From contig CBDDFN010000019.1 of the NCBI GenBank assembly GCA_965227065.1, forward strand, positions 6,731 through 70,730: a stretch of DNA of 64,000 bases. Direction: 5' to 3'. Below the pieces are notes generated by a model. It was not told the origin of the DNA. It was given only the letters and a program-made list of their open reading frames with translations, and did no database searches. Below, in pieces: positions 6,379-55,599 of the stretch (the stretch's first letter is position 1; the number at the start of each line of letters is the position of its first letter). Made by a program: the position numbers and the translations under genes. Source of the stretch: Alphaproteobacteria bacterium. GTDB taxonomy: Bacteria; Pseudomonadota; Alphaproteobacteria; SPJN01.

Positions 6379-6465
6379 GGCCGCTTGCTGGAATTGGTAG
6401 ACAGACCGGACTTAAAATCCGTTGGGGTTCGCCCCGTGTGGGTTCAAGTCCCACAGCGGCCACCA
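6379..6465 (+). tRNA. tRNA-Leu (anticodon TAA), type II with long variable arm, CCA encoded
   Basis: Acceptor stem GGCCGCT / AGCGGCC, D-loop AATTGGTAGA, anticodon loop CTTAAAA, a long variable arm, and T-arm GTGGG-TTCAAGT-CCCAC followed by discriminator A and CCA. Confidence 0.85.
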
Positions 6466-10103: not shown

Positions 10104-10210
10104 CCGTCATTCCGGACGAAGCCCCGCTTCGATCCGGAATCCCGGTGCAAGGGCCCAGGCATGGGGCGGGATTCCGGGTTCGCCGCCCAAGCGTCGCCCC
10201 GGAATGACAT
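10104..10210. repeat. REP-like palindromic intergenic element, copy A (two inverted hairpin modules)
   Basis: Termini GTCATTCCGG (10106-10115) and CCGGAATGAC (10199-10208). Internal inverted pair CCGGAATCCCGG / CGGGATTCCGG. The same motif family recurs at 33038, 41781, 48779 and on both sides of the GIY-YIG gene at 54710 / 55037. Confidence 0.75.
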
Positions 10211-21206: not shown

Positions 21207-21560
21207 ATGTCTGACCAAACTGCCGAACAATTCATCAAGTCCCAGATTGACGACAATGACGTGGTTGTGTTCATGAAAGGCACGCCGGTCTTTCCCCAGT
21301 GCGGCTTTTCCAATCTGGTTGTGAACGTCCTGTCTTATCTCGACGTGCCGTTTGCCGGTATCAATGTGCTGGAAAATGACGACCTGCGTCAGGGCATCAA
21401 GGACTTTTCCAACTGGCCGACCATCCCCCAGCTTTATGTGAAGGGTGAATTTGTCGGCGGCTGCGATATCGTCAAGGAAATGTTCGAGAATGGCGAACTT
21501 CAGGCCTATTTCGCTCAAAAGGGAATCGAGGTGAAGCAAGGCGAACCCGCTTCCGCCTGA
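21207..21560 (+). CDS. grxD: Grx4-family monothiol glutaredoxin
   Basis: CGFS active-site motif (PQCGFSN). 117 aa. Confidence 0.92.
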   Translation: MSDQTAEQFIKSQIDDNDVVVFMKGTPVFPQCGFSNLVVNVLSYLDVPFAGINVLENDDLRQGIKDFSNWPTIPQLYVKGEFVGGCDIVKEMFENGELQAYFAQKGIEVKQGEPASA

Positions 21561-33037: not shown

Positions 33038-33090
33038 GCATCCCGGGTTAGCCGCGCGGCATTGCATGCTGCACAGCACCCGGGATGACG
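33038..33090. repeat. single REP-like hairpin module (copy E) between convergent genes
   Basis: GCATCCCGGG ... CCCGGGATGAC with a ~30-nt loop. The terminus CCGGGATGAC matches the repeat family at 10104, 41781, 48779 and 54710. Confidence 0.55.
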
Positions 33091-41780: not shown

Positions 41781-41929
41781 CGTCATCCCGGCCTCGATTT
41801 TCGCCCAATCTCCGATTGGCATGCGAAAATCAGTGAGCCGGGACCCAGAAGCCGGACTTGGGACTGGATCCCGGATACAAGTGTCGCCAACAGCCTTGAG
41901 GCTGGGCTCCCCTAGTTCCGGGATGACGA
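41781..41929. repeat. REP-like palindromic intergenic element, copy B (149 bp, nested palindromes)
   Basis: Termini CGTCATCCCGG (41781-41791) and CCGGGATGACG (41919-41929). The internal palindromes are CGATTTTCGC / GCGAAAATC and CCAAT...ATTGG. Confidence 0.7.
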
Positions 41930-48778: not shown

Positions 48779-48883
48779 GTCATTCCGGGGCGCACACAAG
48801 TGCGAACCCGGAATCTGAAACGGGACCGGCATCGCCGGGCATCAGATCCCGGATATTTTGCAGGGCAAAATTCCGGGATGACG
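48779..48883. repeat. REP-like palindromic intergenic element, copy C (105 bp)
   Basis: Left end CGTCATTCCGGGGCG...GAACCCGGAATC is nearly identical to the module at 55038-55078. Right end TTCCGGGATGACG. Confidence 0.7.
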
Positions 48884-50759: not shown

Positions 50760-52244
50760 ATGGCATCTCACATTCTCGCGATGGATCAGGGCACGACATC
50801 CAGCCGTGCCTTTGTGTTTTCAGACCAGGCCGAACCGGTGGCCGTCGCGCAGGCGGAATTTGAGCAAATCTTCCCGCAAGCGGGATGGGTCGAACATGAC
50901 CCAATGGCGATTTGGCAAACCTCCCTCACCACCGCGCGCGAAGCGCTGTCAAAGGCAGGTTTGACCGGGACGGATCTGGCCGCCATCGGCATCACCAATC
51001 AGCGTGAAACCACCCTGATATGGGACCGCGCGACGGGCGAGCCCCTCCACAATGCCATTGTCTGGCAGGACCGCCGCACGGCCGGTCTTTGCGCCGAGCT
51101 CAAATCCCAGGGCCATGAGACGGATGTGACGTCCCGCACCGGGCTTTTGCTCGATCCATATTTTTCGGCCACCAAGATCAACTGGCTGCTTTCTCATGTG
51201 GAGGGCGCGCGCGCCCGCGCCCAGGCCGGGGCTTTGTGTTTCGGCACGGTTGAAAGCTGGCTGATCTGGAACCTGACAGGCGGGGCCAGCCATGTCATGG
51301 ACATCACCAATGCCGCCCGCACCCTGCTGTTTAATATCGACACGCTTGATTGGGACGACACGCTGTGCACCCTGTTTGATATTCCCCGCGCCATGCTGCC
51401 CACCGTGCATGACAATTGCGCCCAGTTCGGCGTGGCGCAGGCGGAGCATTTCGGCGCCCCGGTCCCCATTCTGGGCAGTGCGGGTGATCAACAGGCCGCC
51501 TCCATCGGGCAAGCCTGTTTTGAGGCCGGCCAGCTCAAATCAACCTACGGCACCGGCTGCTTCGCGCTTCTCAACACCGGCGAGACCCGCGCCTTTTCGC
51601 AAAACCGGCTTTTGGGCACGATTGCGTCGAAATTTGACGGCACGCTGCATTATGCACTCGAAGGCTCAATCTTTATGGCAGGGGCCACCGTACAATGGCT
51701 GCGCGACGGGCTGGGGCTGATCAGCAGCGCGTCTGAAACGCAAGCCCTGGCCGAAGCCGCCAATGACGCCGCCGGGATCTATCTGGTACCCGCCTTTACC
51801 GGGCTTGGCGCACCCCATTGGGATGCAGAGGCGCGCGGGGCACTGGTGGGATTAAGCCGCGACACCGGCAAGGCCGAAATCGTCCGCGCCGCCCTCGAAG
51901 CGGTGTGCTTCCAGACCCGCGAACTGATGGAGGCGATGGCCAAGGATCGCGGCGCACCGCCCCAGACCTTGCGGGTTGATGGCGGCATGGTGGTCAATGA
52001 CTGGCTGTGCCAACGGCTGGCGGACCTGACCGGCCTGCCGGTTGAACGGCCCCGCATCACCGAAACCACAGCCTTGGGCGCGGCCTATCTGGCGGGGCTT
52101 GAAGCGGGGCTGTTTTCCTCCCGCGACCGCATCGCCGAGGATTGGGCGCGCGAAGCGCTGTTTGAACCGCAAATGAGCGCCGATGAGCGCGAAAGCCGCT
52201 TTGCCGGATGGATGGATGCGGTGAAGCGGACCTTAAGCCGCTAA
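50760..52244 (+). CDS. glpK: glycerol kinase
   Basis: FGGY kinase. The N-terminus ILAMDQGTTSSRAFVF is characteristic. ~494 aa from the ATG at 50760. Confidence 0.93.
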   Translation: MASHILAMDQGTTSSRAFVFSDQAEPVAVAQAEFEQIFPQAGWVEHDPMAIWQTSLTTAREALSKAGLTGTDLAAIGITNQRETTLIWDRATGEPLHNAIVWQDRRTAGLCAELKSQGHETDVTSRTGLLLDPYFSATKINWLLSHVEGARARAQAGALCFGTVESWLIWNLTGGASHVMDITNAARTLLFNIDTLDWDDTLCTLFDIPRAMLPTVHDNCAQFGVAQAEHFGAPVPILGSAGDQQAASIGQACFEAGQLKSTYGTGCFALLNTGETRAFSQNRLLGTIASKFDGTLHYALEGSIFMAGATVQWLRDGLGLISSASETQALAEAANDAAGIYLVPAFTGLGAPHWDAEARGALVGLSRDTGKAEIVRAALEAVCFQTRELMEAMAKDRGAPPQTLRVDGGMVVNDWLCQRLADLTGLPVERPRITETTALGAAYLAGLEAGLFSSRDRIAEDWAREALFEPQMSADERESRFAGWMDAVKRTLSR

Positions 52245-52870
52245 TCCCCATCCACAGGCAAATAGGCAGCGCGCAAGATTGCTGTGGCGTGGGCGATCAG
52301 ACGGCCCCGATCAAGATTCAACTGTTCTGGTTCACCATCTGCAATTGAGTTGAAAACCGCTTCAAGCGTCATCATCCGCACCGCATCGGCTTCACGTTGA
52401 CCCGGCCGATGTTCTTTCCGATGCGCCCGTAGAGCTCCCGCAATTTCAAGCTGACGCAATTGCACTGCGCGATAAGCCTGAAGCGCCACTTCATCAGATT
52501 CAATCAGCAGGCGCATCGCCAATCGTAGGCCGCGCCACTTGGTGTACAAATCCACCTGATGGGCGATGATCTGAGCGACAGCAATATCAGGATCAAGATC
52601 AGTCAGCACAGCCTGTTCAATAATGTGCCACTCCTGTTCGACCCAGGCCTCATAGGCAGCGATCAGCGCTTTTTCCTTGGTTGGAAAATGCTTATAAAAT
52701 GTGCCGGTCGCATAGCCTGCCCGCGCAGCGATTGAGGTGCTGGTCGCGCCCGCCATCCCCTTTTCATTGATTTCAATCGCTGCTGCTGCAATCAGCCGGT
52801 TCATCGTGTCGTGCGGTACGCCGCGACGCGGCCGATCATCATCGAGCGCATCAAGTGTGTAGTCTGTCAT
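52241..52870 (-). CDS. TetR/AcrR family transcriptional regulator
   Basis: 209 aa from MTDYT (52870). The HTH is IAARAGYATGTFYKHFPTKE. The ORF-track extension to 53356 lies inside the SDR gene and was rejected. Confidence 0.8.
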   Translation of the reverse strand: MTDYTLDALDDDRPRRGVPHDTMNRLIAAAAIEINEKGMAGATSTSIAARAGYATGTFYKHFPTKEKALIAAYEAWVEQEWHIIEQAVLTDLDPDIAVAQIIAHQVDLYTKWRGLRLAMRLLIESDEVALQAYRAVQLRQLEIAGALRAHRKEHRPGQREADAVRMMTLEAVFNSIADGEPEQLNLDRGRLIAHATAILRAAYLPVDGD

Positions 52871-52918
52871 GTCAGAAATCTGCCGCTTGACAGCTAGTGA
52901 AGTCAAGCTCATTATTAG

Positions 52919-52932
52919 TGAATAATTATTCA
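52919..52932. promoter_or_regulatory. perfect 14-bp palindrome TGAATAATTATTCA (candidate TetR operator) in a divergent TetR/SDR intergenic region
   Basis: The sequence is its own reverse complement. It lies 14 nt upstream of the SDR start and 49 nt from the TetR start. A second imperfect palindrome, CTTGAC-N10-GTCAAG, sits at 52886-52907. Confidence 0.55.
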
Positions 52933-52945
52933 TTAAAGGACTGAT

Positions 52946-53803
52946 ATGCGCATCATCAAAGGTCAGACGGTATTGGTTACCGGAGCATCCCGAGGCATCG
53001 GCGTCGCCATCGCAACCGCTTTCGCAGAGCGTGGCCTCAATCTTGTGTTGACGGCGCGCCGCGACGTCAGCGTTGCACCGGTGGCACAAAATCTGTCCGA
53101 CAGATACGGAATTACCGCCCACCCGATGGCGTGTGACATGCGCCACCACGACCAGATTGCAGCCTTGGCGGATCACTGTGCGACCGTGCTGGGCGGGATC
53201 GACATTCTGGTCAACAATGCCGGCATTGATCACACCATGCCCTTCGATGATCGATCCTCCAGCGATATCGTTGACATGATTGAGACCAATCTGACCGGCC
53301 CCATACTTCTGGCCCATGCCATTTTGCCCGCGATGATTGCGCGCGACGGGGGGCACATCGTCAACATTGCCTCGCTCGCCGGGGTCATGCCATCGGCCTA
53401 TGAAGAACCCTATAATGCTTCGAAATACGGCCTTGTCGGCTTCACCAAATCCTTGCGGCTCAGCGCACAGGATCAGGGCTGGCCTATCAGTGCCTCGGCA
53501 ATCTGCCCCGGATTTGTCTCAGGCGCAGGAATTTACGAGGCAATGAAATCCGACTACGGCATTTCCGCCCCTGCAAGCATGGGAACGGTTTCGGACGAAA
53601 AGGTCGCGCAAGCCGTCATCCGTGCGGTTGAAAAGGATCTGCCCGATATCGTTATCATGCGAGGCCAGCCCCGGCTGCTGGCCGCACTGGCGATTGTTGC
53701 ACCGCAATTTTTTGAGCGGATCATTCGCTGGTCCGATTCCTCAGCACCCTTCCGTACGGTTGCGCAGGCGCGCGCGGCATCGCGCCCTTTGACTCCTAGG
53801 TGA
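52946..53803 (+). CDS. SDR-family short-chain dehydrogenase/reductase
   Basis: TGASRGIG, NNAG and Y..xK motifs (YNASKYG). Confidence 0.88.
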   Translation: MRIIKGQTVLVTGASRGIGVAIATAFAERGLNLVLTARRDVSVAPVAQNLSDRYGITAHPMACDMRHHDQIAALADHCATVLGGIDILVNNAGIDHTMPFDDRSSSDIVDMIETNLTGPILLAHAILPAMIARDGGHIVNIASLAGVMPSAYEEPYNASKYGLVGFTKSLRLSAQDQGWPISASAICPGFVSGAGIYEAMKSDYGISAPASMGTVSDEKVAQAVIRAVEKDLPDIVIMRGQPRLLAALAIVAPQFFERIIRWSDSSAPFRTVAQARAASRPLTPR

Positions 53804-53864: not shown

Positions 53865-54647
53865 ATGGCCGCTGTCGAAACACTCGAAATTCCCTCCGTC
53901 CAGGACCGGGTGAGCCCCGAAGAATGGGAAGCGCGTGTCAATCTGGCCGCTCTTTACCGCCTTGTGGCGCATAATGGCTGGGATGATCTGGTCTTCACCC
54001 ATATTTCGGTGCGCGTGCCGGGGCCTGAGCATCACTTTCTGATCAACCCATACGGCATGATGTTTGAAGAGATCACCGCCTCTTCACTCGTCAAGATCGA
54101 CACCGAAGGCACCATCGTTGATGAGACGCCCTTCTTTGTGAACCCGGCGGGTTTCACCATCCATTCCGCCCTTCATATGGCGCGCGACGACGCCAAATGC
54201 GTCATCCATCTGCACACGGATGACGGGGTTGCGGTCTCATCGCAAAAACACGGCCTGTTGCCTGCCAGCCAGCTTGCCATGGGCGTGACCTGCGATCTTG
54301 CCTATCATGATTATGAAGGTGTTGCGCTTGAATTGGATGAGCGTGAGCGTCTGGTCGCTGATATGGGCGACAAGGGCTTCATGCTGCTGCGCAATCACGG
54401 CACGCTGACGGTGGGTGAAAGCTGTGCTGATGCCTGGGTGCGGATGTATTTCCTTGAACGCGCCTGCACCGTGCAGGTCCGGGCCTTGTCGGCCGGTGGC
54501 GCCGATGCGCTCAATCAGGCCTCGGACGAATCCATTCGCAAGGCCGGAGAACAGCAAGCCATTGCCTTTACCGGCCCCGGCGGCTCGCTAACCTGGCCTG
54601 CCCTGCTGCGCTGGCTTGACCGCCGCGATCCGTCTTACAGAGATTAA
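53865..54647 (+). CDS. class II aldolase/adducin family protein
   Basis: 260 aa from the ATG at 53865, which follows a GGAGA RBS. His-rich metal-site motifs (HTHI, HLHTDDG) are present. Confidence 0.7.
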   Translation: MAAVETLEIPSVQDRVSPEEWEARVNLAALYRLVAHNGWDDLVFTHISVRVPGPEHHFLINPYGMMFEEITASSLVKIDTEGTIVDETPFFVNPAGFTIHSALHMARDDAKCVIHLHTDDGVAVSSQKHGLLPASQLAMGVTCDLAYHDYEGVALELDERERLVADMGDKGFMLLRNHGTLTVGESCADAWVRMYFLERACTVQVRALSAGGADALNQASDESIRKAGEQQAIAFTGPGGSLTWPALLRWLDRRDPSYRD

Positions 54648-54709
54648 TCAGCGCTGCGGCCCGTGCAACGGGCTTCCGGGTTCCCTCCATCGCCCTCCGG
54701 GCTTTGGAG

Positions 54710-55053
54710 CGCCCCGGAATGACGGGCTGGAGTGACGGACATGGGTGAGAAACTCCCTTGCGTCTATCTTATGGCCGACCGCAAGGACGGGACACTCTAT
54801 GCCGGTGTCACGAGCGACCTGATTGCGCGGGTTCATCAGCACAAGTCCGATGAAATTGCAGGCTTCACCCGGCGGTATCAAATCCATCGGCTGGTCTGGT
54901 TTGAACGGCACGACACGATGGAAAGCGCGATCTTGCGGGAGAAAGCCTTAAAGAAGTGGCGGCGCGCCTGGAAAATCGAACTGATTGAATCCCAAAACCC
55001 CGACTGGAAAGACCTCTACGCCAGCCTCTTCTAAACCCCGTCATTCCGGGGCG
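54710..55053 (+). mobile_element. compact GIY-YIG gene cassette bounded by 17-bp perfect terminal inverted repeats of the REP-like hairpin family
   Basis: IR-L CGCCCCGGAATGACGGG (54710-54726) is the exact reverse complement of IR-R CCCGTCATTCCGGGGCG (55037-55053). Only 14 bp and 2 bp separate the IRs from the ORF. Confidence 0.6.
54741..55034 (+). CDS. GIY-YIG nuclease superfamily protein (COG2827/UPF0213-like)
   Basis: CVYLMADRKDGTLYAGVTSDLIARVHQHK contains the GIY...YIG motif with a conserved Arg and the downstream Glu and Asn. 97 aa from the ATG at 54741. Confidence 0.8.
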   Translation: MGEKLPCVYLMADRKDGTLYAGVTSDLIARVHQHKSDEIAGFTRRYQIHRLVWFERHDTMESAILREKALKKWRRAWKIELIESQNPDWKDLYASLF

Positions 55054-55098
55054 GACCGCAGGTCTGAACCCGGAATCCCGCCCCCAGCGCGGCGCTGA

Positions 55099-55599
55099 TT
55101 ATTGCGCCTTGGCCGCCTCATAATCGGCAATGGCGGTGCGCAATTGCCGTTCTTCCTCACAGCCGAAGGGGCAGATTTCGTCAAGCCGGGACAACAGGGT
55201 TTTTGCCTTGCCCGGCTCGCCGCGCTTGAGGAACAGCTCCCCCAAATATTCATGCGCGCCCTTGTGTTTGGGATCGATCACCAAAGCGCGCTTATAGGCT
55301 TTGTAAGCTTTGTCGAGCTCACCCATCTGGCGCAAGGTGAAGCCCAGATAGTTCAGCCCATCGACATTGTCGGGATCAACATTGACCACCTTGGTGAAAT
55401 ATTTCAGCGCGGTGGCATAGTCTTCCTTGTTCACCGCCTTCACCCCCCGGCGATAGGCCTGAGCGACCTTGTCATCGGTGGCGCTGGGATTGACCGGATT
55501 GGAAAAGCCGCCGCCGCCCGCAGCGAGGCCAACACTGGAGAGTGGCGCGGCGAAAAGCATCATCAGTCCAAGGGTTAAACCTGCTAAAGCTCGTACCAT
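55099..55599 (-). CDS. exported TPR-repeat protein
   Basis: Signal peptide MVRALAGLTLGLMMLFAAPLSSVGLAA, then three TPR units (YRRGV..., LNYLG..., AHEYLG...) and a C-terminal CPFGC motif. 166 aa. Confidence 0.75.
   Translation of the reverse strand: MVRALAGLTLGLMMLFAAPLSSVGLAAGGGGFSNPVNPSATDDKVAQAYRRGVKAVNKEDYATALKYFTKVVNVDPDNVDGLNYLGFTLRQMGELDKAYKAYKRALVIDPKHKGAHEYLGELFLKRGEPGKAKTLLSRLDEICPFGCEEERQLRTAIADYEAAKAQ

Follow-up and report, generated by a model that had tools for sequence, protein, structure and literature searches.

A predicted Ssn-family nuclease gene between two long-insert copies of its hairpin repeat in an uncultured alphaproteobacterium

The window analysed here, 64 kb of contig CBDDFN010000019.1 from an uncultured alphaproteobacterium, contains a small plus-strand gene, ssn (54741..55034, including the TAA stop codon at 55032-55034), lying between two inverted hairpin repeats. 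The gene encodes a 97-aa protein that was assigned, by its Pfam match and by homology to SsnA of Neisseria, to the single-domain GIY-YIG nucleases of the Ssn family, and it is the only copy of ssn in the window. The start codon is ATG at 54741 rather than GTG at 54732, as judged from the fit of the N-terminus in alignments of homologues, and a probable ribosome-binding site, GGAG (54729..54732, +), can be read from the sequence 8 nucleotides (nt) 5' of this ATG. Two inner arms, at 54710-54726 (CGCCCCGGAATGACGGG) and 55037-55053, were found by the repeat finder to be complementary at 17 of 17 positions. The left arm is separated from the ATG by a spacer of 14 nt, and the right arm from the stop codon by 2 nt. 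The initial annotation had described a GIY-YIG gene placed in just this way between exact reverse complements, and this arrangement is confirmed, including the spacers and the nuclease domain (PF01541).

The same kind of association has been reported by Chenal et al. (2025, Nat Commun 16:2388; PMC11893778), who defined the Ssn family and described its genes as flanked by NTS/SRM hairpins (CGTC-ATTCC...GGAAT-C). Their starting point was NTS (CGTCATTCCCGCGMAVGCGGGAATCYRG), a repeat of Neisseria that extends dRS3 and gives it an orientation. A search across bacteria for the gene that NTS flanks led them to ssnA (NMV_0044), whose product is a single-domain GIY-YIG protein of 94 aa (CDD cd10448). 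The suggestion of the initial annotation that the association had not been formally described is thus incorrect, since it was published in that work by the same logic, with the family named Ssn, the repeats named NTS/SRM and the biochemistry shown.

PF01541 (GIY-YIG) is the sole Pfam match of the 97-aa protein (E 1.2e-13, residues 7-79), and the Pfam scan found no separate DNA-binding domain beyond it. More than 1700 relatives from many phyla were found, the best of which (self excluded) are 66-72% identical. The protein is 58% identical to the 94-aa SsnA orthologue of N. gonorrhoeae over 88 aa without gaps (E 8e-41, where the criterion of SsnA homology in PMC11893778 is E < 1e-10). This orthologue was read from NZ_CP119140.1 (locus L087:1495-1776), and Y6, Y17 and E64 were placed in it as in PMC11893778. 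A profile of 25 family members matches the gonococcal orthologue with an hhalign probability of 100% (E 7.8e-48), and all of the 31 columns that are invariant among these members are kept in the 97-aa protein. Residues Y9, Y20 and E67 align, with a constant offset of +3, with Y6, Y17 and E64, the residues that were mutated in SsnA of N. meningitidis, where the substitutions Y6A, Y17A and E64A left binding intact and abolished cleavage (PMC11893778). By these sequence comparisons, the 97-aa protein is an Ssn-family GIY-YIG nuclease. NCBIfam holds no specific model for it, searches of PADLOC and PHROGs gave no match, and a phage collection returned two weak partial matches only; a defence-system or phage origin of the ssn locus finds no support.

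The inverted arms were taken in the initial annotation as 17-bp terminal inverted repeats. The pair is indeed exact, but what it represents is not the ends of a transposon as such. Each arm comprises the head and basal stem of a hairpin unit, and the two units are of the same subtype and inverted relative to each other. The upstream SRM-like unit (54669..54726, minus strand) has a CGTC head at 54724-54721, a basal stem ATTCCGGG / CCCGGAAG, a 32-nt apical insert and the tail CCCG, and its predicted single-stranded DNA fold has an energy of -17.7 kcal/mol. The downstream SRM-like unit (55037..55080, plus strand) has its CGTC head at 55039-55042, beginning 4 nt past the stop codon, and consists of a basal stem ATTCCGGG / CCCGGAAT, an 18-nt apical insert and again the tail CCCG. 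Both units point their heads inward, towards the gene. A similar layout is seen in Neisseria, where the gonococcal stop codon TAG is directly followed by CCCGTCATTCC (a CCGTCAT head junction) and the upstream NTS lies on the opposite strand with its head to the gene, as in the window. Outside the inner arms, two nested inverted pairs were detected, 54669-54683 / 55066-55080 (14/15) and 54645-54658 / 55088-55101 (13/14).

The two flanking units belong to a family that recurs in the window, where nine units occupy five intergenic sites, two units flanking ssn and seven lying at four gene-less sites. Three of the gene-less sites are doublets with the heads outward: 10106..10208 (units 10106-10140 (+) and 10171-10208 (-)), 41782..41927 (units 41782-41844 (+) and 41868-41927 (-)) and 48779..48882 (units 48779-48814 (+) and 48846-48882 (-)). 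The fourth is a single minus-strand unit between convergent genes (33040..33089). All were delimited by a head/stem test and by folding, and the four gene-less elements listed in the initial annotation (at 10104, 33038, 41781 and 48779) are thereby borne out as real and intergenic. For the head GTCATYCCSG, 1.04 occurrences are expected in the window and 12 are observed, and for the complete head-stem...stem unit 0.09 are expected and eight observed; this hairpin repeat family is not a product of chance. Three more head matches lie inside genes (11094, 15365 and 62235) and are chance-like.

Read on its own strand, a unit consists of (C)GTC, an 8-bp arm AT[TC]CCGG[AGC], 16-47 nt of apical insert, the complementary arm and a C. 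The GTC head and an 8-bp stem starting with AT are present in all nine units, a C precedes GTC in eight (CGTC in 8/9, TGTC in 1/9), and a C follows the palindrome in eight of nine. When folded as single-stranded DNA, all nine form hairpins in which the GTC head is unpaired, and each has a private inner stem-loop. The feet are near-identical and the apical inserts are all different (the two units at ssn span 54673-54723 and 55040-55076 when counted from head to stem). The inserts show no significant similarity among themselves or with other window sequence, and they are also unrelated to the empty sites of two syntenic relatives (described below). Inserts so unrelated are not accounted for by copying from a master element. 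Capture of local sequence, for instance of native terminators within repeat feet, was also considered as their origin and was rejected, because these relatives have only 24 nt or overlapping genes at the 41.8-kb and 48.8-kb sites, which leaves no local source.

In these features the units also resemble the CGTC-tagged REPs of Di Nocera, De Gregorio & Rocco (BMC Genomics 2013;14:522; PMC3733652). These REPs (families CGTC-1 to CGTC-4, with Neisseria dRS3 and Rickettsia RPE-4 and RPE-6 among them) carry a CGTC (or TGTC / CCTC) head, have a stem of 8-9 bp that starts with AT and end in a tail close to CCA; most are arranged as inverted dimers, and Alphaproteobacteria are their main hosts (PMC3733652). 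Like them, the window units have an unpaired CGTC/TGTC head, an 8-bp AT[TC]CCGG[AGC] stem (9/9) and a short tail, in many cases CCA or CCC, and are repeated, intergenic and mostly arranged as inverted dimers, which in the CGTC REPs are often heterodimers. The difference lies in the loop, which is 16-47 nt long with its own inner stem-loop in the window and typically 4-5 nt in CGTC REPs, where it is variable in Bradyrhizobium CGTC-1 (PMC3733652). The CGTC REPs were judged to 'lack a dedicated transposase' (PMC3733652), a verdict reached because the screen covered transposase genes only.

The link between gene and hairpins was then compared over homologous loci. For this, 80 genomic loci encoding relatives were fetched (from Dehalococcoidia, Desulfobacterales, Xanthomonadales, Methylophilaceae, Rickettsiales, Rhodospirillales and others), and in 81 loci the 120 nt 5' of the gene were scored against the reverse complement of the 120 nt 3' of it, with shuffled flanks and random placements as controls. 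The median score was 35, compared with 14 for shuffled flanks and 16 for random pairs from the same loci, and a score of at least 32 was obtained in 43/81 loci (34 in the window) against 0/81 both for shuffled and for randomly placed flanks. The complementary segments represent one hairpin type, CGTCATTCC[CG]G...C[CG]GGAATCCAG, the feet of which are the same as those of the window units. The degenerate SRM motif HGTCWYN(0-2)YYVSBRHN(0-5)WNVSBRGN(0-2)RNCYNB (PMC11893778) is found within 300 nt of the gene in 65/81 loci; it occurs mainly in the 250 nt or so on either side, and the other 5.5 kb of each locus are nearly free of it. The initial annotation had proposed testing whether such genes are always bracketed by hairpins, and the motif lies on both sides of the gene in 30/81 loci. 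The run over these loci reproduces the figures of Chenal et al., who found at least one SRM near 71% of the ssnA homologues and SRMs on both sides of 42%, and who also reported that 81% of the genomes with more than 200 SRMs carry ssnA (PMC11893778). A gene-hairpin link that is both specific and general is supported by these data.

The arrangement of the units around ssn varies among loci, and a single conserved orientation rule was rejected. The commonest pattern is heads outward (18/81 loci), whereas the heads point inward in the window and in Neisseria. The closest Ssn homologue with genomic context (L092, 72% identity) is accompanied by canonical short-loop NTS units. In this locus (L092:9890-10400), ssn is flanked by direct repeats of about 85 nt, each of which is a heads-inward NTS doublet, an organisation unlike that of the window and of Neisseria.

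The flank results also bear on a more trivial explanation, that a housekeeping GIY-YIG protein of the UPF0213/YhbQ type has REP or terminator hairpins of the ordinary kind on either side by coincidence. Hairpins are common in the intergenic regions of the window, and the neighbours of ssn are convergent genes, an aldolase gene to the left and a TPR gene on the minus strand to the right, between which terminators would be expected. The UPF0213/YhbQ proteins are likewise single-domain GIY-YIG proteins of about 100 aa. A PDB search with the 97-aa protein found no Ssn structure and gave remote matches to UPF0213 and UvrC only, the UPF0213-type structures 1zg2 and 1ywl being remote relatives (E 3e-4 and 7e-3) compared with Neisseria SsnA (E 8e-41). 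No T-tract terminator was detected at the units, the complementarity of the flanks is far above the controls, and the loci compared have their hairpins close to the gene rather than in other parts. Chance placement of such a protein is hence extremely improbable, and this explanation is effectively refuted by the flank test, the clustering of SRMs and the identity to SsnA.

From the sequence features above it is very probable that the locus consists of an ssn gene with a copy of its cognate hairpin repeat (the SRM, equivalent to a CGTC-tagged REP) on either side, a repeat which is also scattered through the window as singlets and doublets. The likeness to the Ssn/SRM system extends from the protein (about 94-97 aa, a single GIY-YIG domain, with the catalytic Tyr, Tyr and Glu conserved) to the repeats, which flank the gene on both sides, have CGTC heads, stems that start as ATTCC/GGAAT and a 3' C, and have further intergenic copies. 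With SsnA, binding depends most on the C right after the palindrome, and cleavage most on the three nt that precede the palindrome (PMC11893778), and the positions conserved in the window units (head, stem and 3' C) are those critical for cleavage and binding. The differences are that the host is an uncultured alphaproteobacterium, that the stem differs at positions 6-8 (ATTCCGGG instead of ATTCCCGC), that the apical inserts measure 16-47 nt where the published loops measure 0-5 nt, and that the window member is known from its sequence alone.

Several observations weigh against this assignment. None of the window units is matched by the strict SRM motif, because its loop of 0-5 nt is too short for apical inserts of 16-47 nt, and a fit is obtained only with the loop limit widened to 30-60 nt, at which chance matches increase. 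With a limit of 30 nt both of the units that flank ssn fit (54668-54724 (-) and 55039-55080 (+)), and loop length is their sole departure from the motif, the head, basal stem and 3' C being conserved. The inserts nevertheless exceed the loop range of the motif, and tolerance of such inserts by Ssn is hypothetical. In addition, the closing pair is mismatched in the upstream unit (GGAAG), and no promoter-like site was found when the locus was scanned for promoters and terminators. We have classed the locus in the Ssn/SRM system, its repeat being of a long-insert form.

A mechanism can be proposed by analogy with SsnA, which binds NTS as single-stranded DNA only, cuts a few nt 5' of NTS and is inactive on double-stranded DNA, RNA and the reverse strand (PMC11893778). 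When DNA at a unit becomes single-stranded, the strand with the 5'-CGTC head would fold into a hairpin whose basal stem is AT[TC]CCGG., with the (C)GTC head left unpaired on the 5' side and a C on the 3' side. The 97-aa protein, acting as a monomer, would bind the foot of the hairpin sequence-specifically and hydrolyse the same strand about 3 nt 5' of CGTC by means of Y9, Y20, E67 and Mg2+, and cutting of double-stranded DNA, RNA or the complementary strand would not be expected. The distance of about 3 nt is our own reading of the oligonucleotide truncation data in PMC11893778, where the 28-nt NTS begins 3 nt past the cut. At this distance from CGTC, the cuts predicted by the analogy would fall at 55035..55036 on the plus strand, 1-2 nt past the stop codon, and at 54727..54728 on the minus strand, just before the ribosome-binding site. 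Lying on opposite strands, they would bracket the ribosome-binding site and the open reading frame. As to the role of such cutting, SsnA lowers transformation of N. meningitidis by NTS-bearing DNA about five-fold, which is the sole biological role shown (PMC11893778), and by this precedent the window protein might trim single-stranded DNA that bears the repeat and so lower its recombination. A role of ssn in spreading the repeats is also possible.

The history of the locus was approached through two relatives, found via orthologues of the neighbouring genes, which are syntenic with the window over about 22 kb: L088 (77.8% nucleotide identity) and L090 (80.6%). The block contains four hairpin sites of the window (33.0 kb, 41.8 kb, 48.8 kb and the ssn module), and none of the four is occupied in either relative. 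Between the aldolase and TPR genes there are 451 nt in the window, compared with 40 nt or overlapping genes in the relatives, and no Ssn gene was found within the syntenic block of L088 or L090. At the site of the 48.8-kb doublet the flanking genes overlap in the relatives, at that of the 41.8-kb doublet the gap is 24 nt, and at that of the 33.0-kb singlet the relatives have different hairpins. L090 in turn has a heads-outward doublet of its own in the gap between the ADH and NAD-synthase genes, where there is none in the window or in L088. The units and the ssn module are thus gained or lost faster than these lineages diverge. Comparing empty with occupied sites, as the initial annotation had proposed, thereby revealed turnover but not its mechanism; such turnover is what a mobile family predicts, and it does not establish how the units move. 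In L090 (a JGI metagenome contig), a '61-aa gene' is called at 21282-21467 over a heads-outward SRM doublet (starts 21292 + and 21395 -) and is probably spurious.

The junctions at the sites compared with L088 and L090 are too degraded at this divergence for a target-site duplication or a clean boundary to be made out. The outer inverted pair at the ssn module was considered as a target-site duplication. Its left arm (TAATCAGCGCTGCG, 54645..54658) overlaps the aldolase stop codon and has a counterpart, TTACTGGCGCTGAAG, in a relative's empty site, and its right arm (CGCGGCGCTGATTA, 55088..55101) overlaps the stop codon of the minus-strand TPR gene and has no counterpart in the relatives. A small hairpin, GCCCGT-gca-ACGGGC (54659..54673), overlaps the tail of the upstream unit, and it is regarded as ancestral because it is also present in the relative's empty site. 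Since this ancestral hairpin separates the left arm from the module, the outer pair is not a clean target-site duplication and was rejected as such. The TPR gene of the window stops about 6 codons earlier than that of the relative L081, where the 3' end of the TPR gene in the empty site contains a segment, TGTCATTCTTCC (L081:4822-4832), which resembles the SRM head GTCATTCC, probably by chance.

The absence of the module from the orthologous site in the relatives might suggest homing, in which a free-standing GIY-YIG homing endonuclease gene would have cut a pre-existing REP doublet, the hairpins being its target, and would have been copied in by repair. GIY-YIG homing endonucleases do exist, and the gene lies exactly between two hairpin units. 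However, the 97-aa protein is a catalytic domain only, without a second domain or other DNA-binding extension, and the characterised Ssn members do not cut double-stranded DNA (PMC11893778). Nor does the gene sit inside a normal doublet, because the flanking units have their heads inward and those of the gene-less doublets point outward, and the relatives' empty site has no hairpin unit that could have served as the target. We consider an origin by homing very unlikely.

RAYTs are Y1 HUH transposases of the IS200/IS605 superfamily and are flanked by GTAG-tagged REPs. The initial annotation compared the locus with a RAYT between inverted REPs and proposed that the GIY-YIG protein mobilises the hairpins. 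The comparison is apt, and the same analogy was drawn by Chenal et al., who likened NTS-ssnA-NTS to IS and to RAYT/REP-BIME, proposed domestication, and also raised the hypothesis of mobilisation (PMC11893778). In both cases one small gene is bracketed by inverted copies of a hairpin repeat that populates the genome and forms doublets, and the hairpin foot and an unpaired tetranucleotide are recognised on single-stranded DNA. The window protein differs in being predicted as a hydrolytic GIY-YIG enzyme (its sole Pfam match) and not a Y1 HUH tyrosine enzyme with a covalent intermediate; the tag is CGTC for Ssn and GTAG for RAYT, and mobilisation by Ssn is a hypothesis.

Under this hypothesis, which extends the assignment to the Ssn/SRM system, the hairpin-ssn-hairpin module would be the autonomous element and the gene-less doublets its non-autonomous partners. 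In its favour are the complete turnover of sites in the 22-kb block (0/4 window sites in relatives at 78-81% nucleotide identity, with an own doublet in L090), the tight attachment of SRMs to ssn across phyla, and a distribution suggestive of horizontal spread, with Ssn proteins of about 60-70% identity in Dehalococcoidia, Desulfobacterales, Xanthomonadales and others. The chemistry is less favourable, since GIY-YIG enzymes hydrolyse DNA and form no covalent intermediate, and we therefore know of no strand-transfer chemistry for this fold. Moreover, no target-site duplication or clean junction is definable, simple copying of a master element would not be expected to give nine units with unrelated apical inserts, the units are placed differently around ssn in different loci, and deletion or recombination could also give such turnover at 80% identity. 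Mobilisation by the GIY-YIG protein is accordingly a tentative proposal, which we hold to be possible but improbable on present data. With the same reserve, because every hairpin site in the 22-kb block differs between the window genome and the two relatives, it is tempting to speculate that the CGTC/SRM doublets and the hairpin-ssn-hairpin module might form an actively mobile REPIN/RAYT-like system driven by a purely hydrolytic GIY-YIG nuclease of single-stranded DNA, and that long-insert lineages might hold large expansions invisible to the SRM motif.

Some further observations were made in the course of the work. Between the FGGY kinase and class II aldolase genes, at 52241-53803, there are a gene of the TetR family on the minus strand (TetR_N E 1.5e-10) and one for a short-chain dehydrogenase on the plus strand (52946-53803), and this pair is in neither of the two syntenic relatives, which have only an 81-112-nt gap there. 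The sole Rfam/ARAGORN match in the window is a tRNA-Leu (anticodon TAA) at 6379-6465. In PLSDB, two 2.17-Mb N. gonorrhoeae chromosomes (NZ_CP119140.1 and NZ_CP119142.1) are filed as plasmids, and records of Aeromonas caviae (4.9 Mb) and of some Sinorhizobium (3.5-3.7 Mb) look similarly mis-filed.

Overall, the locus is an ordinary new example of the Ssn nuclease and hairpin-repeat system published in 2025; the gene-hairpin link, the biochemistry and the RAYT analogy were all part of that publication, and the locus fits its description. The long-insert units are overlooked by the published SRM motif, which their apical inserts escape, and motif-based surveys therefore under-count SRM-rich genomes. 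By extrapolation, nine units per 64 kb would correspond to several hundred units in a 4-Mb genome. The occupied and empty sites defined here against two syntenic relatives provide a starting point for deciding whether Ssn spreads the repeats or only acts on them.

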